This document shows positions 5,403 through 52,287 of a stretch of DNA of 64,000 bases, piece after piece (the first letter of the stretch is position 1; every line of letters begins with the position of its first letter). Position numbers and translations under genes: made by a program. The notes under the pieces were generated by a model. It ran no database searches and was not told the origin of the DNA. It saw nothing but the letters and a program-made list of their open reading frames with translations. The stretch spans positions 11,741-75,740 of the forward strand of contig CAUJFW010000239.1 in NCBI GenBank assembly GCA_963170075.1, given 5' to 3'. This stretch comes from Gemmatimonadota bacterium. Its GTDB lineage: Bacteria > Gemmatimonadota > Gemmatimonadetes > Gemmatimonadales > Gemmatimonadaceae.

Positions 5403-5596
5403 CACGCGCCACGGGTGTACCGATCTGACGCCGTCGCGCGGGCGGGCAGGCGCGACAGATCGCGAAAACTGAGCCAAAAACAATACCGCGTGGGTCGTGG
5501 GATGTGTGCTGCGAAGCGGGATGGTCAAAATATCCATCGCGCCCTCTCGGCGCAGCGGGAACAGGCGCGCAATGTCGGGCGCTAGATTCGCCCATC

Positions 5597-6409
5597 ATGG
5601 ATCTGCCGTCCCGACCATCCCGTCTGGGCGAACGCTTGCTGTGGCTCACGCTGGCGATCGCACTCACCGTCGCGCTGCTGGCGGTGAGGGGCGTGCTGTC
5701 CGGGCCCCAGGCCGCGATGGGCGTGTTGCCGCTGGCCGCCGTCATTGCGATGGGCGTCAGCCGTCAGCAATCGGGCGTCTTCGCGCAACCGCTGCTTCGC
5801 GTACACACCGCTCGACCGGAGCTCGCACTCACCTTTGACGACGGGCCTGATCCGCGATGGACGCCCGCATTGCTCGATCTGCTCGAGGCGGGCGGACACC
5901 GGGCCACCTTCTTCGTGATTGGCGCCCGCGCCGCGCAGCATACCGACTTGCTGGCGGAGATCGCGAAACGCGGGCACGAACTCGCCAACCACACCTGGTC
6001 GCACTCGTACCTGACGGTCTTTCAGTCGCCGGACACGCTGGCGCGCGACCTCGATCGCACCAACCAGGTGATCGAAGCCGCAGCCGGACGCGTGCCGCGC
6101 TGGTTTCGCCCGCCGGTTGGTCTTTTGTCGCCCCGGGTGCCGCTGGGGGTTCGTCGGGCGGGACTCGAGCTGGTGGCGTGGACTGCCACCGCCCGCGATG
6201 GCGTGGCGCGCACGTCCACGGCCGAAGCGATGGCCCGGCTGGAACCGGCGATCGTCGCCGGCGCCATTCTGGTCATGCACGATGCACCCGTCGCCGGCGA
6301 CCGCCCGCTGATCGTGCTCGAGCTGACTCGGCAGCTGCTGGGCCGCATGGAGACCGAGAATTTGGTGTCCGTGACGTTGTCAGAACTTTGCGAGCCCGGC
6401 CTGCGTTGA
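5597..6409 (+). CDS. Membrane-anchored polysaccharide deacetylase (NodB/CE4)
   Basis: LTFDDGP, HELANHTWSH, FRPPVG and ILVMHD motifs; two N-terminal hydrophobic segments. Confidence 0.9.
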   Translation: MDLPSRPSRLGERLLWLTLAIALTVALLAVRGVLSGPQAAMGVLPLAAVIAMGVSRQQSGVFAQPLLRVHTARPELALTFDDGPDPRWTPALLDLLEAGGHRATFFVIGARAAQHTDLLAEIAKRGHELANHTWSHSYLTVFQSPDTLARDLDRTNQVIEAAAGRVPRWFRPPVGLLSPRVPLGVRRAGLELVAWTATARDGVARTSTAEAMARLEPAIVAGAILVMHDAPVAGDRPLIVLELTRQLLGRMETENLVSVTLSELCEPGLR

Positions 6410-27290: not shown

Positions 27291-29099
27291 CTACGTCCGA
27301 AGCGATACGTCCCGCCCCCACACCAGCACCGCACGCACACGCTGCTGCCGGAGTCCGGCCTGGCGTATCACGCGGGCAAGCCAGCGCAGCGAGGTCGCAC
27401 CTTGCCGCACGCAGACAATCAGGTCGGACGGTGCGTCGGCGGACGACATGCGTGCGTCAACCAGATCCAATCGCAGGTCGTACTGTTCCCCCCACTCCCG
27501 CACAGCCGTCCATGTTGCCGCATCCACGCGAGCCACGGCGGCACGATCCGCCGTCGACTCGTCGTCAGACGCATCGAGGGCTGCGGCGTGGTCCGTCGGC
27601 GCGAGCAACACATCGATGTGCGCATCGCGATCGAGTGGCACCACGTGCACCGCTTCTTCGGCCCGCGCCCGACCAGCGCGGACGTCACCCAGCGTGAACC
27701 GGGGCGTCGCGCCCAAGAGTGCAGACAGTGGCGGTGTCGTGACGGCACGCTCCACCACGAGGGCAGCCCGCGATTCGTGCGCCGCCACCGCTGCCACGCT
27801 CAGCGCCACGGCGGCCGACACCGCGACGTCATCGGAGATGACATCCGCGCGCGTCACGATATCGCCGACACCGGTCAGCGACTGATGCAGCAGCACGAAC
27901 GTATCACTGGTCCGATCGATGATCGCAGAGACGCCGGGTCGCTCGCGACGGCGTCGGTCGACGTGAGCCGGACTGGAGGCGTGCGAGGGTCTCGACGACG
28001 CGCCATGCAGCAGCACCGACGCGGTGGTGATCGCCTCCACTTCGGCCAGATCACCAACCGTCGGGCGGCGCATCTCACGGACCAACACGGCGCCATAGCC
28101 CGCCGCCAACCCGATCACCAACGCGGCCAGCAGCATCGCAAACGGCGGAAGCGTCGCGCTCAAACGCGAGACAAGTGCCGACCGCTCGGCGGCCAGCAGC
28201 ACAATCGTCCCTCGCGTCGCAGTGAGCACAGAATCGGTAAGGGTCACACGCTGCGACAGCGAATCGATGCGTCGAGCGCGGGCCGCCGAGATCTCGGCGG
28301 ACTCCACGGCGACTGACGCAATGAGCGGACGTCCCAAGGAATCGACGCGCAGTACGCTGTCGGCGCGTGCCGAGTCCATCACGCCCGGCGTCACAAGGCG
28401 GCTCGTGGACGGCTTCGGCGCCGTGATCGTTTGCAGCACGTAGCGGGCCACGCGCTGCTCCGCGAGGCGCACCAACCGCTGGCCCAGCGCCGTCAGTTTC
28501 GCCGTCAGTGCGGCGTAGCGCGCGCCCGGTCCGCCCAGCGCCGCATGCGCTTCGCGCTCCCGATCCACGAGGTCGATACTGTCCACGAGCGCGGCGACCC
28601 GACGATCGCCGCGCAGCAGCGGTGAGTCGCCGAGTGCGCGATAGCTGTCGGCCAACGGCGCGTTCCGCGCGCGCGTGACACGCGCCATCAACTCGATGGC
28701 GGCACTGTCCGCGAGTGGTGACGGCGGGGCGCCGGGCGTGCCGGCCGCAGTGGTGCCAAGCGCAACCGCGACACGTCCGGCGCTGTCGGTTACGTCGTCG
28801 GGGCTGAGCGCCAGCGCTGTGGTGAGGCGCGCACCGGCAGGCTCGACCACCGTGTCGCGCTGTACCGCACGCAGTGCCAGACGCAACGAATCGAGCGCGC
28901 GAACGAGCGGCGCCGAGTCTGGCGCGACCGGTAGCGCGTCGATGCGGCGCTGTACCTGCCGGTCGAGTTCACGCGGGATGAGCACCAGGGCGAGCAACGT
29001 GACCATCACGCCGATGCTTCCCATGGCCGCAATGCGGACACCCTGCCGCGAGGCATTTCTGGCGCGGGCGGCAATCCACGCACTGCGCTGACGAGCCAT
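27291..29099 (-). CDS. Hypothetical Wzc/chain-length-regulator-like membrane protein with degenerate C-terminal domain
   Basis: Two TM segments flanking a long helical region, then a cytoplasmic domain with no recognisable Walker A. The assignment is architectural only. Confidence 0.45.
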   Translation of the reverse strand: MARQRSAWIAARARNASRQGVRIAAMGSIGVMVTLLALVLIPRELDRQVQRRIDALPVAPDSAPLVRALDSLRLALRAVQRDTVVEPAGARLTTALALSPDDVTDSAGRVAVALGTTAAGTPGAPPSPLADSAAIELMARVTRARNAPLADSYRALGDSPLLRGDRRVAALVDSIDLVDREREAHAALGGPGARYAALTAKLTALGQRLVRLAEQRVARYVLQTITAPKPSTSRLVTPGVMDSARADSVLRVDSLGRPLIASVAVESAEISAARARRIDSLSQRVTLTDSVLTATRGTIVLLAAERSALVSRLSATLPPFAMLLAALVIGLAAGYGAVLVREMRRPTVGDLAEVEAITTASVLLHGASSRPSHASSPAHVDRRRRERPGVSAIIDRTSDTFVLLHQSLTGVGDIVTRADVISDDVAVSAAVALSVAAVAAHESRAALVVERAVTTPPLSALLGATPRFTLGDVRAGRARAEEAVHVVPLDRDAHIDVLLAPTDHAAALDASDDESTADRAAVARVDAATWTAVREWGEQYDLRLDLVDARMSSADAPSDLIVCVRQGATSLRWLARVIRQAGLRQQRVRAVLVWGRDVSLRT

Positions 29100-29111
29100 G
29101 GCTAAATGAAA

Positions 29112-29144
29112 CGCGGGGGCCGGCGCATGTCGCCAGCCCCCGCG
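29112..29144 (-). terminator. Intrinsic terminator of the blue-copper gene
   Basis: GC-rich hairpin cgcgggggc...gcccccgcg followed on the minus strand by tttcattt. Confidence 0.7.
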
Positions 29145-29166
29145 GGTCAATCAATCGTGATGCAGC

Positions 29167-29676
29167 TTACTGAACCGTGACCTTGCCCTTCATGTTCATC
29201 GCAAGGTGCGGCGTGCAGTTGAAGTCGTACGTGCCCGGGGCGATGCCGCCGAACGAAATCGTGTACGTCTCGCCAGCGGTGAGCAGCATCTTGCCCGACA
29301 GCTCGCCCATCTGCTCCGGCATGTTCGCCATCAGCTGCGTCTTCACGTCAGCCGGCAGCGTTGCGGGATCAAACGCCACGTTGTGCGGGCCGCCGCTGAC
29401 CATCACGAACTTGATACCGTCGCCGGCCTTGACCGTGATTTCGGCCGGCTCAAAGCGATAGCCCTGACCGTCGCCGACCATCTTCACTTCGTGCGTCGTG
29501 CCCGTGATCGGGGCCATTGCACCAGCCGCTGCCGGAGCCGCCGGCGCTTCCATCGCCGGAGCCGCTGCCGCCGAAGCGCCAGCCGCCGCCGTATCCGTCG
29601 CCGCCTTGTCACCACCGCCGCACGCGCCGAGCACGATCGCCGCGCTGGCCATCACCGCAATACCGAGAAACCGCAT
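29167..29676 (-). CDS. Type 1 blue-copper lipoprotein (plastocyanin/azurin/auracyanin-like)
   Basis: GGAGG RBS, lipobox VLGAC, Ala-rich tether, GPHNV and CTPHLAMNM ligands (His, Cys, His, Met). Confidence 0.92.
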   Translation of the reverse strand: MRFLGIAVMASAAIVLGACGGGDKAATDTAAAGASAAAAPAMEAPAAPAAAGAMAPITGTTHEVKMVGDGQGYRFEPAEITVKAGDGIKFVMVSGGPHNVAFDPATLPADVKTQLMANMPEQMGELSGKMLLTAGETYTISFGGIAPGTYDFNCTPHLAMNMKGKVTVQ

Positions 29677-29800
29677 GTCGAGAGGCCTCCGAAGCCTTTT
29701 CGCGAATTGTGTCACGTATCCACAGAGAATCCTGTGTCCGCAGGGCCCTGCGGATACTTGTGAAGTTATTCACAAGCCTGTCCGATAGCAATTGGCAGGG

Positions 29801-29829
29801 TTGACGGCAACCTCGGGCGGGACTAGCGT
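29801..29829 (+). promoter_or_regulatory. Sigma-70 promoter of the his operon
   Basis: TTGACG (29801-29806), 17-bp spacer, TAGCGT (29824-29829); the predicted +1 falls at or next to the leader ATG. Confidence 0.65.
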
Positions 29830-29836
29830 CAACCCC

Positions 29837-29929
29837 ATGCGCTCTGTTGCCAACCGCCACCATCATGCCCATCACGGCCACGACCTCACGGGTCGGGGAA
29901 CGTTGGGCGTGGCACAGCGCAGACCGTAA
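29837..29929 (+). CDS. hisL: His operon leader peptide (30 aa, 6 His)
   Basis: MRSVANRHHHAHHGHDLTGRGTLGVAQRRP*, directly upstream of hisG; below the ORF-track size cut-off. Confidence 0.88.
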   Translation: MRSVANRHHHAHHGHDLTGRGTLGVAQRRP

Positions 29930-29988
29930 CGCGCAGCACCACTCTCGCTACGACTCCCAGGCCCGTCCCGATTGGACGGGCCTTTTTT
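29889..29988 (+). promoter_or_regulatory. His attenuator: antiterminator (29889-29899 pairing with 29955-29965) overlapping terminator (29959-29988)
   Basis: Terminator stem aggcccgtcc/ggacgggcct plus T-run. cgggtcgggga can pair with tcccaggcccg (10 of 11 pairs including one G-U); the two structures are mutually exclusive. Confidence 0.82.
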
Positions 29989-30045
29989 ATTGCCCGTCGT
30001 CGGCACCTTCGTTCGGCCCTCCTCGCTCTCTGAACACCTAAACAA

Positions 30046-30924
30046 ATGCTACGTATAGCGTTACCAAACAAAGGCCGTCTCAGCGAAGACACCCGCGAGC
30101 TGTTCAACGACGCAGGACTCGAGGTCCGCTCCTCCGGTGAACGGGCGCTCACCGCGTCACTCGGTGGCGAATTCGAGGCCATCTTTGTCCGCGCCCAGGA
30201 CATACCCGAGTTTGTCGCCGATGGGGCCGCCGATGCAGGAGTCACCGGTTGGGACCTGGTCTCCGAGTCGGAGCGACCGCTCGTGTCGCACCTGGATCTT
30301 GGATTCGGGAAGTGCCGGCTGGTCGTCGCGGCACGCGACGATGCGGGCGTGACATCCGTCAACGACATCGGGTCGGCCAGCAAACCCGCCCGCGTGGCCA
30401 CCGTCTTTCCGCGCATCACCGCACGCTATTTCGCCGAAGCCGGTCGGCCGGTGGAAATTGTGCCGGTTTCCGGCGCCGCCGAAATTGCGCCGCACCTTGG
30501 AATCGCCGATGTCGTCGTCGACCTCACCTCGACAGGATCCACGCTGCGGGTGAACGGTCTGCGCGAGATCGCCACGGTCATGCTCTCGAGCGCGCACCTC
30601 ATTACCGCCACGAACGGTCCGCGAAACGGTGATCCGGAGCGCGGACGTGAGTTCGCTGAACTGGTGACCGCCCTGGGCTCCGTCATTCGTGCGCGTGGTC
30701 AGCGCTACCTCATGGCCAATGTGCCGCGTACGGCGCTTGATCAGGTGCGTACCGTGCTGCCGGGTCTCAACGGCCCCACGGTCATTGAGATTGCCGACCA
30801 TGGTCAGTTTGTCGCGGTACACGCCGTCGTCCGCGCCGATACGATCTACCGTACGATCGCGCAGCTGCGCGCGCTTGGCGCGGAAGGCATTCTCGTCACA
30901 CGCATCGAGCGGCTCGTGCCATGA
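30046..30924 (+). CDS. hisG: ATP phosphoribosyltransferase, long form
   Basis: MLRIALPNKGRL, VRAQDIP, ADVVVDLTSTGSTL, plus the C-terminal regulatory domain. Confidence 0.96.
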   Translation: MLRIALPNKGRLSEDTRELFNDAGLEVRSSGERALTASLGGEFEAIFVRAQDIPEFVADGAADAGVTGWDLVSESERPLVSHLDLGFGKCRLVVAARDDAGVTSVNDIGSASKPARVATVFPRITARYFAEAGRPVEIVPVSGAAEIAPHLGIADVVVDLTSTGSTLRVNGLREIATVMLSSAHLITATNGPRNGDPERGREFAELVTALGSVIRARGQRYLMANVPRTALDQVRTVLPGLNGPTVIEIADHGQFVAVHAVVRADTIYRTIAQLRALGAEGILVTRIERLVP

Positions 30925-32291
30925 CGGAACCCATGCTGACAGGGGCCACTGCGCTGACGCTGCGGGCGCGCGGCGACTTTGCCTCCCTCGACGCCGCGAC
31001 ACGCCGCGCCATCACCGATCGCACATCGTCACTCGACGCGACCATTGGCGCGCGCACCGCGGCCATCATCGACGATGTACGCCTCAACGGCGACGAGGCC
31101 CTGCGTCGATACGCGCGCGATTTTGACGGTGCCACGCTGACGCGGCTCGAGGTGCCGCGTGAACGCTGGATCGCCGCGCTCGACGCACTCGATCCCGCAC
31201 TGCGCCGGTCGCTCGAACGCGCGGTGCGCAACATCGCCGCCGTGCACACCGCGTTCCTGCCGCGCGAAACGACCGTGTCACCGGAGCCTGGCATCACGAT
31301 TGGCCGGCGCCCGGATGCGCTGCAGCGCGTGGGGGTCTACGCGCCCGGTGGGCGCGCCGCATATCCGAGTTCGCTGTTCATGGGGGCGATTCCGGCGCGC
31401 GTCGCGGGTGTGCAGGAAGTGATTGTCTGTTCGCCGCCGGGCGCCAACGGCGAGCCCTCGGCCGTGGTGCTTGCGGCCGCGGCACTGGCCAATGCGGATC
31501 GCGTGTTTGCCGTGGGCGGTGCTGGCGCGATTGCAGCACTGGCGCTGGGTACGGACACGATCCCGCGCGTCGATCGGATTGTGGGCCCGGGCAATGCCTA
31601 TGTGGCCGAGGCCAAGTTGCAGCTCGTCTCGCAGGTGACGATCGACGCGCCGGCCGGACCAAGCGAGATCCTCGTGCTGGCGGACGACAGTGCCAACCCG
31701 CTCGCGGTAGCGCGCGAACTGCTGGCCCAGGCGGAGCACGATCCCGATGCGGCGGTGATCGCGGTGCTGTGCGGCGCGTCTGCGCCTGCGTTAGCCGAGC
31801 GCACCGAGCGTGCACTCGCCGAACTGGTAAACGGAACGCCGCGCGCCGCGATTGTGCGTGCGTCGCTCGCCGCGCGCGGCGCCATCGTGACGGTGGACTC
31901 ACTCGCGAACGCCATCGAAATCGCCAACGCCTGGGCCGCTGAACATCTGTTGCTCGTGGTACGCGATGAGGTGCGGGCAAGCGCACTCGCGGCGCTGCGC
32001 AGCGCGGGGACGGTGTTTGTGGGCGAAAGCAGCTCGGTGGCGTTCGGCGACTACATGACCGGCGCGAATCATGTGCTGCCAACCGCAGGCGCGGCGCGTT
32101 GTTATTCGGGGCTGTCGACCCTCGACTTTGTGCGCTGGACGACGTGGCAGGAGGTCACGCCGGTGGCGGCCGCCGCTTTGTCCGACGACGTGGCCCGCTT
32201 TGCCGACGCGGAGGCCCTGCCGGCGCATGCCGCCGCGGCGCGCGCATGGGCACGCGCCGATACAGACGTCGCGGCGGAGGTGGAACGATGA
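30921..32291 (+). CDS. hisD: Histidinol dehydrogenase
   Basis: VGVYAPGG, GPGNAYV, AGPSE, AQAEHD, EHL and DYMTGANHVLPT motifs. Confidence 0.96.
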   Translation: MTEPMLTGATALTLRARGDFASLDAATRRAITDRTSSLDATIGARTAAIIDDVRLNGDEALRRYARDFDGATLTRLEVPRERWIAALDALDPALRRSLERAVRNIAAVHTAFLPRETTVSPEPGITIGRRPDALQRVGVYAPGGRAAYPSSLFMGAIPARVAGVQEVIVCSPPGANGEPSAVVLAAAALANADRVFAVGGAGAIAALALGTDTIPRVDRIVGPGNAYVAEAKLQLVSQVTIDAPAGPSEILVLADDSANPLAVARELLAQAEHDPDAAVIAVLCGASAPALAERTERALAELVNGTPRAAIVRASLAARGAIVTVDSLANAIEIANAWAAEHLLLVVRDEVRASALAALRSAGTVFVGESSSVAFGDYMTGANHVLPTAGAARCYSGLSTLDFVRWTTWQEVTPVAAAALSDDVARFADAEALPAHAAAARAWARADTDVAAEVER

Positions 32292-33358
32292 GTGAACGGC
32301 TGGCAGTCGCGCGTGCGATCTATGACGGTCTGTCGCTGTACGATCCCAAACGTGCGCCCATCGATCTTGATCTGACCGACAATACGAATCTGTGGGGCAT
32401 GCCGCCGGCGGCCGAGCGCACGTTGCGTGAGGTGCCGGTATCGGCGGTCACCCGCTATCCCACGTTGTATTCCGCAGATCTCAAGACGGCGCTGGCTGAC
32501 TATGTCGGTGTGTCACCGGACATGATCGTGACCGGCTGCGGGTCGGATGACATTCTTGATTCCGCCATGCGGGCGTTCGGAGAGCCCGGCGATCTGGTGG
32601 TCAGCTCTGATCCTTCGTTTGCGATGATTCCGATTTTCGCGCAGATGAATGGACTGCGCTGGCAGGGCGTCACGGAATGCGCAGGGACGCCGATACCACA
32701 ACCGGACGTCGAGGCGCTGCTCGCCACGCGTGCCCGCATCATCTATCTCTGCACCCCCAACAATCCTACGGGCGCCTTGATGGAACGAGCGCTCATCGAA
32801 CGCGTCGTACGCGAGGCGGCGGGCGTGGTGTTCATCGACGAGGCGTATGCCGAGTTTGCCGGCGTGTCCTCCGTGGACCTGTTGGCGCACTCCGATCGGG
32901 TGCTGATCATTCGCACCTTGTCCAAGGCATTTGGCCTGGCCGGACTGCGCATCGGATACGCCATCGGCAATCCGTCGCTCGTGATGGAGGTGGAGAAGTC
33001 CCGCGGGCCGTACAAGCTGAACGCACTGGCCGAGCGCGTAGCGCTCACCGCGCTGCGCGAAGACCGCGTGTGGGTTGACGAACATGTCCAGCTGGCCATC
33101 GCGCTTCGTGAGCGTCTTGCCGCTGCGCTTCGGAAGATGGGGCTCGCGCCGATGCCGTCGGCGGCGAACTTCGTGTGCGTCCCGATGCGCAACGTCGTAG
33201 CGGTTGGTCAGGCACTGCGTGCGCGCGGAGTCGCCGCGCGGCCGTTTCCCGGCCTGCCACATGTGGGCGACGCGTTGCGCATCAGCGTGGGACCGTGGCC
33301 ACTGCTCGAACGACTGCTGGGCGCGCTGGGTCCGGCGATGATCGAGGCGAGCGCATGA
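32288..33358 (+). CDS. hisC: Histidinol-phosphate aminotransferase
   Basis: PNNPTG, IDEAY and RTLSKAFGLAGLRIGY (PLP Lys) motifs. Confidence 0.95.
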   Translation: MSERLAVARAIYDGLSLYDPKRAPIDLDLTDNTNLWGMPPAAERTLREVPVSAVTRYPTLYSADLKTALADYVGVSPDMIVTGCGSDDILDSAMRAFGEPGDLVVSSDPSFAMIPIFAQMNGLRWQGVTECAGTPIPQPDVEALLATRARIIYLCTPNNPTGALMERALIERVVREAAGVVFIDEAYAEFAGVSSVDLLAHSDRVLIIRTLSKAFGLAGLRIGYAIGNPSLVMEVEKSRGPYKLNALAERVALTALREDRVWVDEHVQLAIALRERLAAALRKMGLAPMPSAANFVCVPMRNVVAVGQALRARGVAARPFPGLPHVGDALRISVGPWPLLERLLGALGPAMIEASA

Positions 33359-34050
33359 GCGAGCGAATAAGCATCCACCCGCCCACCTCATCGCTGCGCG
33401 TCACTGTGTTTGACTACGGCGCGGGCAATTTGCACTCACTGATCAAATCACTCGAAACGGAACAGACGACGGTTCGAGTCGAGACGGACTCGGCCCTCGC
33501 GGTGGCCGAAACCGACGCACTGATTCTGCCGGGAGTCGGCGCGTTTGCGCCGGCGGCCGAGCGACTGGCAGCCGGTCGCGTCGTCATGAAACAGGCGTTG
33601 GAGCGAGGGCTGCCGTGCCTCGGCATCTGTCTCGGGATGCAGTTGCTGTTTGACGGGAGCGACGAAGGCCCCGGTGACGGCCTTGGCATCATTCCCGGTC
33701 GCGTCACGCGGTTGTCTGCCGAGCGGGTTCCACAAATCGGATGGAATCGGCTGGAGGATGTGCACGAGCCACTCGCGTTGGAGGCGGCGCTGGACGTAGC
33801 CTACTACGCCAACAGCTTTGTCTGTCGGCCCGTGTCGACCGCGCTGCCCTTGGTGATGGCGTGGAGCGAACACGAGTCGGATCGTTTTCCGGCTATCGTG
33901 CGTCGCGGCGCGGTGGTTGGGGTGCAATTTCATCCGGAGAAGTCGTCGACGCCGGGCGTGCGGTTTGTGCACGCCTTTCTTGACGCGGCACGACGGCAGG
34001 CCGACGGACGGCCGGGCGCAACGCTGGGTTCCTCGCTGGAGGGTGGATGA
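33355..34050 (+). CDS. hisH: Imidazole glycerol phosphate synthase, glutaminase subunit
   Basis: DYGAGNL, LPGVGAF, GICLGMQ and QFHPEKS triad motifs. Confidence 0.95.
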   Translation: MSERISIHPPTSSLRVTVFDYGAGNLHSLIKSLETEQTTVRVETDSALAVAETDALILPGVGAFAPAAERLAAGRVVMKQALERGLPCLGICLGMQLLFDGSDEGPGDGLGIIPGRVTRLSAERVPQIGWNRLEDVHEPLALEAALDVAYYANSFVCRPVSTALPLVMAWSEHESDRFPAIVRRGAVVGVQFHPEKSSTPGVRFVHAFLDAARRQADGRPGATLGSSLEGG

Positions 34051-34760
34051 TTGTGATTCCCGCAGTCGATCTGCGCGGCGGCTACTGCGTGCAGTTGGTG
34101 GGTGGCGAGTACAACGACGAACGCGTGCGGCTGGACGATCCCGCTGCGGTGGCGCGGGAGTGGGCGCGCATCGGTTTTTCGCGCGTGCACGTCGTGGATC
34201 TGGACGCGGCGACGGGTCGCGGGAGCAATGCCGACACCATCCGGGAGATTCTGCGCGATGCGTACGTTCCCGTGCAGGTTGGCGGTGGCATTCGGCACGA
34301 GTCGCAGATTGAGCGCGCACTCGACGATGGCGCGTCGTGGGTGGTGGTGGGAACGCGCGCCATCGAAGACGACGACTGGCGTGGTGAAATGGCGGCGCGG
34401 TTTCCCGGCCGCCTCATCATTGCCGCCGACGTACGCGAACGTCTCGTGGTGACCCGCGGCTGGGCCGAAACCTCCCGACTGGACGTGATCGACTTTGTGG
34501 AGTCGCTGGCCGGCTTGCCGCTGGGCGGTGTGCTGGTGACAGCGGTTCACAAAGAGGGCCAGATGAGCGGCACCGACTTGCCGTTGATGGAAGATGTGGC
34601 GGAGGCGAGTGCGTGGCCGGTGTTTGCTTCGGGTGGCGTCTCGTCGGCCGAGGATCTGCGCGCACTCGAACACCGTGGTCTCGCCGGTGCGGTACTGGGG
34701 ATGGCCCTATACACGGGCGCGCTCGATGCGCGCCGTATTGCTGAGGAATTTGGAGCATGA
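34047..34760 (+). CDS. hisA: ProFAR isomerase
   Basis: IPAVDL, HVVDLDAA, QVGGGIR and ASGGV motifs. Confidence 0.95.
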   Translation: MIVIPAVDLRGGYCVQLVGGEYNDERVRLDDPAAVAREWARIGFSRVHVVDLDAATGRGSNADTIREILRDAYVPVQVGGGIRHESQIERALDDGASWVVVGTRAIEDDDWRGEMAARFPGRLIIAADVRERLVVTRGWAETSRLDVIDFVESLAGLPLGGVLVTAVHKEGQMSGTDLPLMEDVAEASAWPVFASGGVSSAEDLRALEHRGLAGAVLGMALYTGALDARRIAEEFGA

Positions 34761-35299
34761 CGGTTGTCACGCGCGTCTCGAAGGAAACCCAGATCACGCT
34801 CGCCCTGCGCGCCGGTACCGGTGTGTCACAGGTGCGCACGGGCGATGATTTCCTGGATCACATGCTGGTGGTGTTCGCCCGGTATGCGGGAGTGGATCTC
34901 GACGTGGAGGCCACCGGCGACCTGCGTCATCATCTGATTGAAGACGTGGCCATCACGCTCGGTCAGGCGGTTGCCGCCTTTGCGCCGGCCGGCTGCGCAC
35001 GGTTTGGCGAACGCACGATGGCGATGGACGACGCGCTGGTGCAGGTGGTGCTCGATATCGGCGGACGGCCGTACTACCGCGGCCCACTGCCCGCGCCACT
35101 GTACGATCATTTTCTGCGTTCGTTTGCCGACAACGCGCGGACCACGCTGCACGTGCGCGTGCTGCGCGGTCGTGACCGGCACCACATCGTCGAGGCGGCC
35201 ATCAAGGCGCTGGGTCTCTCGCTGCGTGATGCGCTCGCCGACACCGGCATGGTCTTCAGCACGAAAGGCAGTGTGCGTCTCGACATCACCGAGGAGTGA
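34757..35299 (+). CDS. hisB: Imidazoleglycerol-phosphate dehydratase (monofunctional)
   Basis: RVSKET, FLDHML, DLRHHLIED, MDDAL and DRHHIVEAAIK metal-binding motifs. Confidence 0.93.
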   Translation: MTVVTRVSKETQITLALRAGTGVSQVRTGDDFLDHMLVVFARYAGVDLDVEATGDLRHHLIEDVAITLGQAVAAFAPAGCARFGERTMAMDDALVQVVLDIGGRPYYRGPLPAPLYDHFLRSFADNARTTLHVRVLRGRDRHHIVEAAIKALGLSLRDALADTGMVFSTKGSVRLDITEE

Positions 35300-35302
35300 C
35301 CG

Positions 35303-36088
35303 GTGCTGACGCGACGTGTGATCGTGTGTCTCGATGTGAAAGGCGCCCGCGTGGTGAAGGGTGTGCAGTTTGAAGGCTTGCGGGATGTCGGGGATCCCGT
35401 GTCGCTCTCCGAGCGGTACGAACGTGAAGGCGCGGATGAGATCACCTTTCTCGATATTTCCGCCAGCGCGGACGAACGGGCGACGCTGCTGGACGTGGCG
35501 CGCCGCACGGCCGAGCGGCTGTTCATTCCGCTCACGATCGGTGGCGGCGTGCGGACGGCCGACGATGTCGCACGTGCGTTGCGGGCCGGCGCCGACAAGG
35601 TGTCGCTCAATTCGGCAGCCGTGGCCAATCCCGAGGTGCTCACCGCCGCCGCCGATCGGTTTGGGGCGCAGTGCGTGGTGGCCAGCATCGACGCCAAGCG
35701 CGGCGCCGATGGGGTTTGGCGCGTGTGGATCAAGGGCGGGCGGGAGGAAACGCCACTCGAGGCGGTGGCGTGGGCGCAGGAGTGCGTCGCACGCGGTGCG
35801 GGGGAAATTCTGCTGACGTCGATCAATCAGGATGGCGCACGCACCGGCTACGATATTCCGCTCACCCGCGCCGTGGCCGACGCGGTGCACGTGCCTGTGA
35901 TTGCCAGCGGGGGTGCGGGCCAGGCGAGTCATCTGGTGGAGGCCGTGCGTGAGGGCGGCGCCGATGCCGTGTTGGTGGCCGGCATCCTGCATGATGGCGT
36001 GACGACGGTGTCGGCGCTCAAGGACGCGATGCACCGCGCGGGCGTGCCCGTGCGTATCGTAACAACCCCCAGCCAGGTGGCCGCATGA
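35303..36088 (+). CDS. hisF: Imidazole glycerol phosphate synthase, cyclase subunit
   Basis: RVIVCLDV, VVKGVQF, FLDISAS, GADKVSLNS and IASGGAG motifs. Confidence 0.96.
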   Translation: MLTRRVIVCLDVKGARVVKGVQFEGLRDVGDPVSLSERYEREGADEITFLDISASADERATLLDVARRTAERLFIPLTIGGGVRTADDVARALRAGADKVSLNSAAVANPEVLTAAADRFGAQCVVASIDAKRGADGVWRVWIKGGREETPLEAVAWAQECVARGAGEILLTSINQDGARTGYDIPLTRAVADAVHVPVIASGGAGQASHLVEAVREGGADAVLVAGILHDGVTTVSALKDAMHRAGVPVRIVTTPSQVAA

Positions 36089-36912
36089 CCGCCGTGACCT
36101 CGCAGTCACTCTTGTTGCAGGCAACGGCGGAGGTGGCGCAACTGGCCGCGCGCACCGCGATGCGGTGGTATCGCCGCGATGTGCGCGTGGAGATCAAGGG
36201 CGATGGGTCGCCGGTCACGATTGCCGATCGTGAGGCTGAACGCGTGGCCCGCGAATGGCTCACCGCACGTTTCCCCAAGGATGGACTGCATGGCGAAGAG
36301 TTCGGCATCGAACGTGCCGAAGGCACACGCCGATGGATTCTCGATCCCATCGACGGCACGAAGGCGTTCGTCCGCGGCGTGCCGCTGTGGGGAACGCTGG
36401 TTGCGTGCTGCGAAGGTGATACCGTGTTGTCGGGTGCGGCGTGTTTCCCGGCCGTCGACGAGCTGATCGTCGCGGCTGCTGGTGAAGGCTGCTGGTGGAA
36501 TGGCGCGCGTGCGCAGGTCTCGAGCGTGGACACGCTCGAACAATCGACCCTGCTCATTACCGACGACGTGTTCGCCGATCGGCCATGGCGTTCGGGACCG
36601 TGGCGCGAACTCGCCTCACGAGCGGGCGTCACACGCACGTGGGGGGACTGCTACGGGTATCTGCTCGTGGCGACCGGGCGTGCGGAAATCATGGTGGACG
36701 ATATCGTGAACCCGTGGGATACCGCGGCGATCTATCCGCTGATCACCGAAGCCGGCGGACAGTTCACGTCGTGGAAGGGCATCGACACCGCATTTGGCGG
36801 CGACGCCATTGCCACCAATGCGGCCGTTGGCGATGCGGCGCGCGCATTGCTGCTGGAACCTGAACTGGAACCCGAAACCGTGGTTCGTCGCGATGCGGGA
36901 CAGTGCCTGTGA
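36085..36912 (+). CDS. hisN: Histidinol-phosphate phosphatase (inositol monophosphatase family)
   Basis: GEEFG, WILDPIDGTKAF and WGDCYGY motifs; lies inside the his operon. Confidence 0.9.
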   Translation: MTAVTSQSLLLQATAEVAQLAARTAMRWYRRDVRVEIKGDGSPVTIADREAERVAREWLTARFPKDGLHGEEFGIERAEGTRRWILDPIDGTKAFVRGVPLWGTLVACCEGDTVLSGAACFPAVDELIVAAAGEGCWWNGARAQVSSVDTLEQSTLLITDDVFADRPWRSGPWRELASRAGVTRTWGDCYGYLLVATGRAEIMVDDIVNPWDTAAIYPLITEAGGQFTSWKGIDTAFGGDAIATNAAVGDAARALLLEPELEPETVVRRDAGQCL

Positions 36913-37532
36913 CCACGATGCGGTTCGATCCTGACACCCTCGATTTCAGCAAGAGCAACGGCCTCGTGACGGTCGTCGCGCAGGACGCCGACAGTGGCGT
37001 GGTCCTGATGGTGGCACACGCCGATCGCGACGCGATCGCGCGCACGATCAGCACGGGCGAAATGCATTACACGTCGCGAACCCGCGGGCTCTGGCACAAG
37101 GGCGGCACGAGCGGGAATGTGCAGCGAGTGGTCTCGCTGTCGGCCGACTGTGATCGAGACGCGGTGCTGGCCCGCGTACGACCCGCCGGTCCGGCGTGCC
37201 ACGAGGGCACCACGTCGTGCTTTCGCGATGACGCACTCGGGGCGGACGCACTGGGGGTGCTCGATCGCACCATCGCCGCGCGCGCCGCGACCGCAAGCGA
37301 CGGCACGAGCTACACGCACAAGCTGCTCGGTGACCGCAACCTGCGACTCAAGAAGCTCGGAGAAGAGGCCGTGGAGCTGGCCGTGGCCTGCGTCGATCTC
37401 GATCTTGAGCGGGCCGCCGAGGAGGGCGCTGACCTTGTGTACCATGCGCTGGTCGCGCTGCGCGCCGCTGGTGTTTCGCTCGACGACGTTCGGCGGGTAC
37501 TCGCGCAGCGCGCCGGCGCGCCGGCGCGTTAA
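36909..37532 (+). CDS. hisIE: Bifunctional phosphoribosyl-AMP cyclohydrolase / phosphoribosyl-ATP pyrophosphatase
   Basis: SRTRGLWHKGGTSG, DCDRD, PACHEG, KKLGEEAVE and DLVYH motifs. Confidence 0.95.
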   Translation: MTTMRFDPDTLDFSKSNGLVTVVAQDADSGVVLMVAHADRDAIARTISTGEMHYTSRTRGLWHKGGTSGNVQRVVSLSADCDRDAVLARVRPAGPACHEGTTSCFRDDALGADALGVLDRTIAARAATASDGTSYTHKLLGDRNLRLKKLGEEAVELAVACVDLDLERAAEEGADLVYHALVALRAAGVSLDDVRRVLAQRAGAPAR

Positions 37533-50991: not shown

Positions 50992-52287
50992 TTATCGGAT
51001 ACTGGCGCGCTCCAGCAGCGACGACTTGCCATCGGTGTTGAGGAGATACACCACGCCACCGGGACCAAAACCGGCAAGCACGCGGCCCTTCGGGAACGAC
51101 ACCCGTTCGATGATTTCTCCCTTGCGATTCACCACATCGTACAGCAAGCCCGTGGTGCCAGCGCCGACGGCCGTGCGCGGTACGATCCACAGATTGTTGT
51201 CGAGGTCCGCCCGCACCGAACCCGGTGAGATAGGTGGCTCGTAGTCCGGGATCTTGTTGAGCGGCACGAAGTCGAATTCGATGGAAATGCGGCGCGGACC
51301 GTTCGGCGTGGGAATGGTGGGCAGCGACGCGCCCTGCGCCTTGAGTTGCTTCTCCATCTCGGGGCGCAGTGAGTCGATCTTGAACTGTTTCTGTTCGTCG
51401 CTGAGACGCTTCCAGTCAAACGGCATCTTTGGCGTAGATCGTTTGGTGCCGTCGGGATCGAGCCAGTCGAGGTGATAGTCGTGCGCGCGCACCACCGCGA
51501 TTGTGCCGTCGGTGAGGATCGCCCATTCGTCGCCCGTATCGAGCGGGTTGATCGTCACCTTGAGCGCGAAGTTCCCGTCCTTGCCCGTTGACATCGACAT
51601 GTTGCCGGGCTTGAGCGCCTTCATCGTCATCAGTGTGTCCACGTTGCGCGTGTCAAAATCGGCACGCACAATTGGCGCGGAATCCGGTTGCTCGGGAAGC
51701 CGGAATGCGCCGAACGGTGTTTGCGGCGCATTCGGATCGGGCGGCTTTGGCGGGTTGATGATCACGCCGCGATACACCAGGCGACCCTTGTTGTCGGCCA
51801 TGGGCACCCCGTACACCGACCCCATCGCGAGGAAGATCGCATCGCGTGGCCTGGGGAGTGCCATGACATGCCCCACCTTGCCATTCGGATCGAGTACCAG
51901 CAGCGACATCGACGAGACATCGACATACAGCGATGAATCGGCGAGATACGGAATCAACTGCGCCGATTGGATGGCCATCGGCATCGCCGCATTGGCGCCG
52001 CTGCTGCCAGAGTCCATCACGACGGTAGCGCTCTTGAGCGATGCGTCAAACAGCAGCACGCGCTGACGCGCCACGTCGTTCACCAGCACTTTGCCCGACG
52101 ACAACGGACGAACTGCGACGCGTGCGCCGAGTGAATCGGTGGAGACCGCGGTCACCGCACCGAGCGAGCGGGTGGGAATCTTGGCTTGGGCGACGCTTGG
52201 CGTGGTACCCGTCGACTGCGCCGACGCTTGCACCGTAGCGCTCGCCAATCCAAGCGCGAGCACGGTGAATATCCTTCGACCCTGCAT
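50992..52287 (-). CDS. Secreted hypothetical protein, probable beta-propeller (paralog of 52580-53965)
   Basis: Signal peptide; shares VNDxxRxR, YLxDSSLxVD, PDSAPIxRADFDTR and GELxYDVVN-like blocks with its neighbour. Confidence 0.7.
   Translation of the reverse strand: MQGRRIFTVLALGLASATVQASAQSTGTTPSVAQAKIPTRSLGAVTAVSTDSLGARVAVRPLSSGKVLVNDVARQRVLLFDASLKSATVVMDSGSSGANAAMPMAIQSAQLIPYLADSSLYVDVSSMSLLVLDPNGKVGHVMALPRPRDAIFLAMGSVYGVPMADNKGRLVYRGVIINPPKPPDPNAPQTPFGAFRLPEQPDSAPIVRADFDTRNVDTLMTMKALKPGNMSMSTGKDGNFALKVTINPLDTGDEWAILTDGTIAVVRAHDYHLDWLDPDGTKRSTPKMPFDWKRLSDEQKQFKIDSLRPEMEKQLKAQGASLPTIPTPNGPRRISIEFDFVPLNKIPDYEPPISPGSVRADLDNNLWIVPRTAVGAGTTGLLYDVVNRKGEIIERVSFPKGRVLAGFGPGGVVYLLNTDGKSSLLERASIR

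Follow-up and report, generated by a model that had tools for sequence, protein, structure and literature searches.

The window (the whole stretch of 64,000 nucleotides that was analysed) holds a nine-gene his operon, in which hisG starts at 30046 and encodes a protein with the Pfam HisG and HisG_C domains, and in which the remaining genes are packed without gaps. Its sequence matches activated-sludge Gemmatimonadaceae MAGs. Directly ahead of hisG lie a promoter-like sequence, a short ORF rich in His codons and several segments able to form RNA helices (Table 1). A first, sequence-only reading of this DNA had proposed a His leader-peptide attenuator here, and the promoter, the ATG, the peptide, the antiterminator pair and the terminator with its T-run were each found exactly where that reading had placed them.

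Table 1. Features of the his leader and of the operon that it precedes (positions in the window)
Feature	Positions	Strand	Basis or detail
-35 hexamer TTGACG, leader promoter	29801-29806	+	read from sequence
-10 hexamer TAGCGT (family consensus TAsssT)	29824-29829	+	17-nt spacer from -35 hexamer
Leader-peptide ATG and putative transcription start	29837-29839	+	leaderless or 5' UTR of at most ~4 nt; TSS inferred
Leader peptide ORF, 30 codons + TAA, MRSVANRHHHAHHGHDLTGRGTLGVAQRRP	29837-29929	+	stop TAA at 29927-29929
Regulatory His-codon run, 6 His in 8 codons (CAC CAT CAT gcc CAT CAC ggc CAC)	29858-29881	+	sequence
Region 1, predicted 5' arm of anti-antiterminator	29865-29885	+	outer helix 29865-29869, inner helix 29878-29885
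Region 2, predicted 3' arm of anti-antiterminator (29891-29898, 29906-29910) and 5' arm of antiterminator (core 29889-29898/99)	29889-29910	+	
Region 3, predicted 3' arm of antiterminator (29955-29965), overlapping the terminator 5' arm (29960-29968)	29955-29968	+	
Region 4, predicted 3' arm of intrinsic terminator (GGACGGGCC)	29974-29982	+	
Terminator U-tract TTTTTT	29983-29988	+	sequence and consensus terminator scan
Regulated his operon: hisG (long form), hisD, hisC, hisH, hisA, hisB (IGPD), hisF, IMPase-family gene (probable hisN), hisIE	30046-37532	+	Pfam and ORF coordinates

The leader ORF has His at codons 8, 9, 10, 12, 13 and 15, which gives the run HHHAHHGH. Just as had been expected of standard gene callers, it goes unannotated in public assemblies, and an exact-sequence look-up of the peptide returned no record. 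Between the -10 box and the ATG at 29837 there are only seven pyrimidine-rich nucleotides (29830-29836, caacccc), with no purine-rich Shine-Dalgarno (SD) sequence among them and no room for one. The pattern TTGACN-N17-TANNNT occurs once on the two strands of the 64-kb window, at the leader promoter, against a chance expectation of ~0.3. Downstream of the His run, 29889-29899 (CGGGTCGGGGA) and 29955-29965 (TCCCAGGCCCG) can pair at 10 of 11 positions, one of them a G.U, with a G.A mismatch at 29895/29959. The terminator has a GC-rich stem of 9 bp (29960-29968/29974-29982), a CGATT loop and a T6 tract, with a predicted energy of -18.7 kcal/mol. Further upstream, a CRP-like palindrome at 29758-29777 was considered as a second his regulator and set aside: it is present only alongside a divergent cupredoxin gene, and its spacing is constant relative to that gene, not to the leader.

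In hisG loci taken from species-representative genomes, a His-rich mini-ORF was found upstream of hisG in ~76 of 80 relatives, with runs of 4-7 His per 8 codons kept in nearly all of them; conservation of the His run, on which the sequence-only reading had staked its proposal, is thus borne out. Counted at species level, more than 110 further genomes carry the whole module ahead of hisG or, in one case, of hisD; they belong to Myxococcota and, within Gemmatimonadota, to Gemmatimonadales and Longimicrobiales. When a genome collection was scanned with a DNA pattern limited to the terminator stem and a portion of the His run, at least 120 matches were obtained, at least 78 of them with a His-rich ORF and with hisG no more than 1.3 kb downstream. 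Among the matches listed, all 78 of these were from Gemmatimonadota or Myxococcota (including Longimicrobiales, M. xanthus and an Archangiaceae MAG), if a few records entered as Eisenbacteria or merely as 'bacterium' are counted with Gemmatimonadota, and the remainder, with neither a His run nor hisG downstream and mostly from other phyla, were chance matches. In one further match, from a Longimicrobiales MAG, the leader lies directly before hisD.

The family extends beyond Gemmatimonadota, the only phylum that the sequence-only reading had named: homologous leaders are present in Myxococcus, Corallococcus, Pyxidicoccus, Hyalangium and an Archangiaceae genome; those of Corallococcus, Pyxidicoccus and Hyalangium have an identical layout and terminator sequence. 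A covariance model built from Gemmatimonadaceae/Gemmatimonadales leaders only, which finds one copy in the window, matched Myxococcota leaders with 47-85 bits (E 3e-9 to 3e-18) and Longimicrobiales leaders with 48-65 bits, in both cases over its full length, and hence the leaders of the two phyla form one homologous RNA family. The long-form HisG proteins of Gemmatimonadota and Myxococcota are ~68-70% identical in amino acids. We lean, if only slightly, towards the fuller proposition that a single His-attenuator RNA family with a leaderless peptide start is common to Gemmatimonadota and Myxococcota together with long-form hisG. If true, a biosynthetic operon would have moved between phyla with its cis-regulator and a start codon abutting the promoter.

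The terminator (GGCCCGTCC-loop-GGACGGGCC followed by a T-rich tract) was present in all 66 leaders analysed, with a stem that is almost invariant and a loop that varies freely, and 99% of the cells in its alignment columns are paired. On 65 leaders RNAalifold predicted this terminator and a two-part hairpin, the putative anti-antiterminator, in which an outer helix joins 29865-29869, within the His run (cAUGCC), to 29906-29910, and an inner helix joins 29878-29885, the codons directly past the run, to 29891-29898. In the alignment, 96.1% of the cells of anti-antiterminator and terminator together are paired, compared to 19-53% in slid controls; seven pairs have changed on both sides, 33 cells are compensated as against 9.9 +/- 5.4 in shuffles, and the observed covariation score was reached by none of 500 shuffles. 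All five pairs of the outer helix covary, with changes on both sides. At column pair 36:84, for instance, the third position of a His codon (C/U) tracks its partner (G/A), with CG in 27 leaders, UG in 21 and UA in 11. The columns of the antiterminator (29889-29898 with 29956-29965) are 90.9% paired, a share that drops to 36-63% on sliding by 1-3 columns. Because it is nearly invariant, the core shows no more column-wise covariation than shuffles do.

We therefore also compared, by RNAduplex and free of any alignment, each genome's region with its own (cognate) partner or with the partners of other genomes in 3000 permutations. Cognate region 2 and region 3 paired with a mean of -32.8 kcal/mol compared to -30.1 +/- 0.38 when permuted (0/3000 as low), an advantage of 2.7 kcal/mol or 7 SD, and region 1 with region 2 at -29.95 compared to -27.46 +/- 0.34 kcal/mol (0/3000 as low). 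In the composition control, region 2 with reversed region 3, the difference was only 0.55 kcal/mol (-23.02 vs -22.47 +/- 0.31; 120/3000 as low), and regions 1 and 3, which are not expected to pair, gave no effect (-11.19 vs -11.14 +/- 0.19; 1203/3000 as low). In these leaders, then, the predicted helix 1:2 covaries and pairings 1:2 and 2:3 co-evolve, and that regions 2 and 3 hardly vary is to be expected where each segment must pair with two partners. Comparative evidence thus supports three mutually exclusive helices. The covariation that the sequence-only reading had proposed to test in its two helices was found in part: cognate antiterminator duplexes are 7 SD more stable, while the antiterminator core columns do not rise above shuffles and the terminator is almost invariant. 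Both of its helices, antiterminator and terminator, are upheld; its model had omitted the anti-antiterminator formed by region 1, the one with the best covariation support.

The consensus leader peptide is M-x(3-6)-HHHAHHGHGPTGRG-x(4-10), and a motif that looks so conserved in amino acids might suggest that the small ORF encodes a functional His-rich (e.g. metal-binding) peptide, with the hairpin as its own terminator, hisG separately promoted and the pairings incidental. Eight public metatranscriptomes from wastewater or biofilm yielded thin contigs only; in four runs the leader had no coverage. Two tiny contigs, 151 and 206 nt long, start at 30002 and 29993, just past the terminator, and lend this reading some colour. 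Nevertheless, we regard such a peptide as very improbable. The apparent amino-acid conservation (GPTGRG) is in reality conservation of nucleotides, synonymous sites included, and changes at His third positions are compensated in the partner strand. The C-terminal tail varies in sequence and length across the family (17-31 aa in all), and one member, L037, keeps the RNA with only three His codons. Among the leaders found, the module always stands directly upstream of a his operon (hisG, once hisD), no promoter is conserved between terminator and hisG, and the cognate 1:2 and 2:3 pairings co-evolve. His codons are CAT in 48% of cases in the leaders versus 25% in hisG of the same loci, an enrichment in keeping with the A-U and G-U pairs in the outer helix.

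Taken together, these features make it very probable that the leader attenuates transcription of the nine-gene his operon in response to histidine, with the ribosome as mediator. Transcription from TTGACG-17-TAGCGT would begin at, or a few bases from, the A of the ATG at 29837. With His-tRNA plentiful, the ribosome would translate through the His codons as far as the stop at 29927, and in its wake region 1 (29865-29885) would pair with region 2 (29891-29910), and region 3, left free, would form the terminator with region 4 (29960-29968 with 29974-29982, followed by U6), so that RNA polymerase would stop before hisG. With charged tRNA-His scarce, the ribosome would stall at codons 8-15 (29858-29881) with its footprint over region 1, and the core of region 2 (29889-29899) would be free as region 3 (29955-29965) emerges; the resulting antiterminator would occupy the 5' arm of the terminator long enough for the polymerase to read into hisG. 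Stalling at the His codons would matter because region 1, the 5' arm of the anti-antiterminator, overlaps them. In this scheme we infer where the transcription start site (TSS) lies, that ribosomes stall, that the helices compete kinetically and that the switch responds to histidine.

We modelled the ribosome with an assumed footprint of ~30 nt, from the first base of the P site minus 14 to the first base of the A site plus 12, based on published bacterial footprint sizes. The modelled ribosome covers region 1 when its A site lies at His codons 10-14. Folding of the transcript with the ribosome masked, and cut before region 4, gave an extended antiterminator that engages 10-11 bases of 29955-29969, whereas without a ribosome the minimum-energy fold is helix 1:2 plus terminator. 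In full-length RNA at equilibrium the terminator always beats the antiterminator by ~9 kcal/mol, ribosome mask or not, and only the truncated, co-transcriptional fold switches. The alternative structures envisaged by the sequence-only reading were thus recovered for the truncated transcript with a masked ribosome, but not for the full-length RNA, which always folds into the terminator. Since the terminator wins at equilibrium, the switch would have to be kinetic. The E. coli trp leader is likewise kinetic, with 3:4 more stable than 2:3.

One element of the earlier scheme gave way. A ribosome at the stop codon (29927) had been supposed to cover 29889-29899, but its modelled footprint would be ~29910-29939, and the segment would instead be sequestered by pairing with 29878-29885. 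Half of the members have their stop codon 8 nt downstream of where helix 1:2 ends, and in the window's clade the distance is 17 nt. In the commonest arrangement the terminating ribosome would occupy distal region 2 and the distal part of the extended antiterminator, and the local inner hairpin can form behind it.

Support for a leaderless start of the leader mRNA is indirect but strong. TTGAC[G/T/C] is conserved in the leaders of 64 of 66 relatives, with a spacer to the -10 box of 17 nt in 52 of these 64 loci, 18 nt in 11 and 16 nt in one. The gap from -10 box to ATG in the 66-leader set is 5-10 nt with a mode of 7 (6 nt in 8 leaders, 7 in 19, 8 in 12, 9 in 15 and 10 in 8). The same arrangement was found in 39 of 49 further leaders, retrieved with a pattern that does not contain the promoter, with the first in-frame start 6-10 nt past the -10 box. 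By eye, two of the misses among the 49 also fit, M. xanthus (TACTCA) and a Longimicrobiales MAG (TACCAG). Some members have GTG in place of ATG at the identical position, and the Myxococcota share the geometry of promoter and start. Because this geometry is conserved in ~100 independent leaders, the start looks leaderless, as the sequence-only reading had supposed, and the leader mRNA is probably either leaderless or provided with a 5' UTR of 0 to ~4 nt, the TSS being placed by promoter geometry. In about one-third of members 9-10 nt separate the -10 box from the start codon; some of these would have a 5' UTR of 1-4 nt and would not be strictly leaderless.

Alternatively, the attenuator could be real and its mRNA not leaderless, with transcription starting upstream and the ORF translated by SD-independent internal initiation. 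SD use in Gemmatimonadetes has been tabulated at only ~22 (PMC10783764) and SD-independent initiation appears common; hisG itself has no SD, and the neighbouring cupredoxin mRNA has an SD-less 5' UTR of 11 nt. With SD use this low and hisG SD-less, absence of an SD is but weakly diagnostic of leaderlessness. In the metatranscriptomes, moreover, three low-depth contigs (29679-29850, 29750-30016 and 29500-29988) cross the proposed TSS. They are covered to the same depth as the genes on either side and so may be carried-over DNA; if they are RNA, they would speak for transcription from further upstream. M. xanthus 'RNA' runs, including one raw-read set, showed flat coverage of both strands across the promoter, indistinguishable from DNA. 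Against an upstream start, near-consensus -35 and -10 boxes with a 17-18 nt spacer stand 5-10 nt before the start codon in ~100 leaders of two phyla while their surroundings drift, and the sequence further upstream holds no second conserved element resembling a promoter (the palindrome at 29758-29777 goes with the cupredoxin gene). We consequently hold an upstream start to be unlikely, if well short of negligible, and keep to transcription from the promoter that abuts the ORF. As an anecdotal observation, one metatranscriptome contig ends at 29988, the end of the U-tract.

Sensing need not involve translation at all, and the his operons of Firmicutes and Actinobacteria are often under T-box control (PMC9413887), so that a T-box recognising uncharged tRNA-His, a regulatory protein or a small-molecule riboswitch was also considered. 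An Rfam cmscan of 29000-31000 with a maximum E of 10 gave 14 weak terminator-like sRNA matches, with T-box, His_leader (RF00514) and any other meaningful family absent. The in-frame His run and the conserved start codon directly behind the promoter are a hallmark of sensing by the ribosome, and the leader, of only ~150 nt, lacks a specifier-loop architecture. Translation-independent sensing is for these reasons hardly credible, and ribosome-mediated attenuation is the reading that we retain. The same scan establishes that the leader is not a member of Rfam His_leader RF00514.

A full-text literature search found no description of a his leader-peptide attenuator in Gemmatimonadota, in agreement with the sequence-only reading; a 2010 survey possibly covering delta-proteobacteria lay outside the comparison. 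Such attenuators have been described in gamma-proteobacteria and several Firmicutes lineages (PMC9413887) and, for Actinobacteria, in a conference paper cited by PMC4833913. The leaders analysed here would add a fourth independent lineage to gamma-proteobacteria, several Firmicutes groups and Actinobacteria, as an apparently undescribed sequence family with a known, hisL/trpL-type mechanism. If true, this would be the first His-sensing leaderless attenuator, as far as the searched literature shows, and would extend leaderless leader peptides beyond Actinobacteria, with a bearing on transcription-translation coupling when the ribosome loads on a 5'-terminal AUG. Gemmatimonadota, with almost no characterised gene regulation, would gain a testable cis-element and a putative housekeeping-type promoter consensus, TTGACN-17-TAsssT. 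The predicted element is also present in the genetically tractable Myxococcus xanthus, which could then serve as a host for studying the timing of 70S-type leaderless initiation with RNA polymerase in attenuation. The ORF is missed by annotation pipelines and Rfam holds no model for the family, which the present alignment and covariance model could seed.

In the E. coli his leader an SD lies in the 5' UTR and seven His codons follow one another; in the leader studied here, by contrast, the ORF abuts the promoter and the His run is interrupted (HHHAHHGH). What the leader shares with enterobacterial hisL is a short ORF with a His run before hisG, alternative hairpins with a U-tract terminator and, as predicted here, ribosome stalling as the sensor (PMC9413887), whereas the taxa differ and sequence or structure homology is undetectable (RF00514 unmatched at E <= 10). 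Candidate his attenuators of Firmicutes (B. cereus group, Peptostreptococcaceae and Erysipelotrichales; Ashniev et al. 2022, PMC9413887, excerpted text) are similarly lineage-specific, independent of RF00514 and found by comparative genomics, but they belong to other phyla with no sequence relationship expected, and the excerpted text does not mention leaderless starts.

A leaderless start is also less unusual than the sequence-only reading had held, being documented for leader peptides in S. lividans, C. glutamicum and mycobacteria (PMC8079986, PMC11857589, bioRxiv 10.1101/834739). In S. lividans, trpL1, trpL2, leuL1, leuL2, ilvL, thrL and metL are transcribed leaderless, several with Rho-independent terminators (PMC8079986), and C. 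glutamicum ilvL is treated as leaderless (PMC11857589); among the leaderless attenuators of these two sources no His example is given. Like the leader studied here, these actinobacterial systems combine a leaderless leader peptide with hairpins and a U-rich intrinsic terminator before amino-acid genes, but they concern other amino acids, another phylum and unrelated sequences, and their TSSs have been mapped experimentally, whereas ours follows from promoter geometry. The mycobacterial poly-Cys leaderless sORFs, which attenuate translation (Canestrari et al., bioRxiv 10.1101/834739), follow a similar logic: they have a leaderless start, they repeat the codons of the regulated amino acid in a run, and in them a stalled ribosome remodels a downstream RNA duplex, as is predicted here. 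Unlike them, the leader studied here has a canonical intrinsic terminator, and hence most likely acts on transcription.

Between the his promoter and the divergent cupredoxin gene lies the perfect palindrome CTTGTGAAgttaTTCACAAG, which resembles a CRP-family site, and a second, small inverted repeat is found nearer the cupredoxin gene in the same intergenic region (see table). Among 71 related loci, the core GTGA-N6-TCAC occurs in 51, and is confined to those with a cupredoxin gene as upstream neighbour. Its distance to the cupredoxin start is mostly about 75-95 nt, whereas anything between 44 and 824 nt separates it from the his ATG. Because the palindrome is thus tied to the presence and distance of the cupredoxin gene and varies in its distance to the his ATG, we assign it, as a putative factor site, to the cupredoxin control region.

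The cupredoxin gene was the feature with the highest coverage in four wastewater metatranscriptomes. Moreover, in two metatranscriptome runs a contig ended at 29687 fused directly to Illumina adapter sequence, which suggests an RNA 5' end at this position and hence an 11-nt, SD-less 5' UTR (GGCCTCTCGAC-ATG). No standard -35/-10 pair was found upstream of 29687. The only promoter-abutting start of the his-leader type elsewhere in the window opens a 341-aa ORF (MDSGSSGANAAMPMAIQ...), which may be another leaderless gene.

Features in the window outside the his leader
Feature	Position	Strand	Remarks
Cupredoxin or plastocyanin-family gene	29167-29687	-	Pfam Copper-bind; 169 aa; ATG at 29676
Small inverted repeat	29721-29736		CACAG-agaatc-CTGTG
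Perfect palindrome	29758-29777		TGTGA-N6-TCACA
IMPase-family gene	36085-36912		within his operon, between hisF and hisIE
Promoter-abutting start	52017-52049	-	TTGACG-16-TACCGT, ATG 4 nt on

Within the his operon, the IMPase-family gene probably encodes a histidinol-phosphate phosphatase of the hisN type; if so, it would supply the step absent from the operon's monofunctional, IGPD-only hisB. In the leader itself, contigs of two biofilm metatranscriptomes have G for A at 29899, a synonymous change (GGA to GGG) that converts the terminal antiterminator pair 29899:29955 from A-U to G.U.

In a Longimicrobiales MAG (L189), the same leader (peptide MNVLRALQHRHHAHRHGPDGSGWRACVRR) is at about 5591-5750 on the minus strand, directly 5' of hisD rather than hisG. 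The leader at 1326-1480 of locus L037 has just three His codons in its peptide (MSALGYHHARHGRGPSGRG...) and nonetheless scores 94 bits with the covariance model built from Gemmatimonadaceae/Gemmatimonadales leaders; this attenuator may be decaying or less sensitive. MAG OF_bin.40 has two distinct hisG loci (L044 and L048), each with its own leader, one starting with GTG and the other with ATG; either the locus is truly duplicated or the bin is mixed.

Comparison of the window with L055, L063, L067, L069, L074, L076, L077, L108, L162 and L188 revealed that the long-form HisG proteins of Myxococcaceae and Archangiaceae are 60-70% identical to those of Gemmatimonadaceae. The myxobacterial hisG is also preceded by a homologous leader, whose terminator stem is identical to that in Gemmatimonadaceae. 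Taken together, these sequence similarities suggest inter-phylum transfer of hisG, or of the whole operon, along with its regulator.
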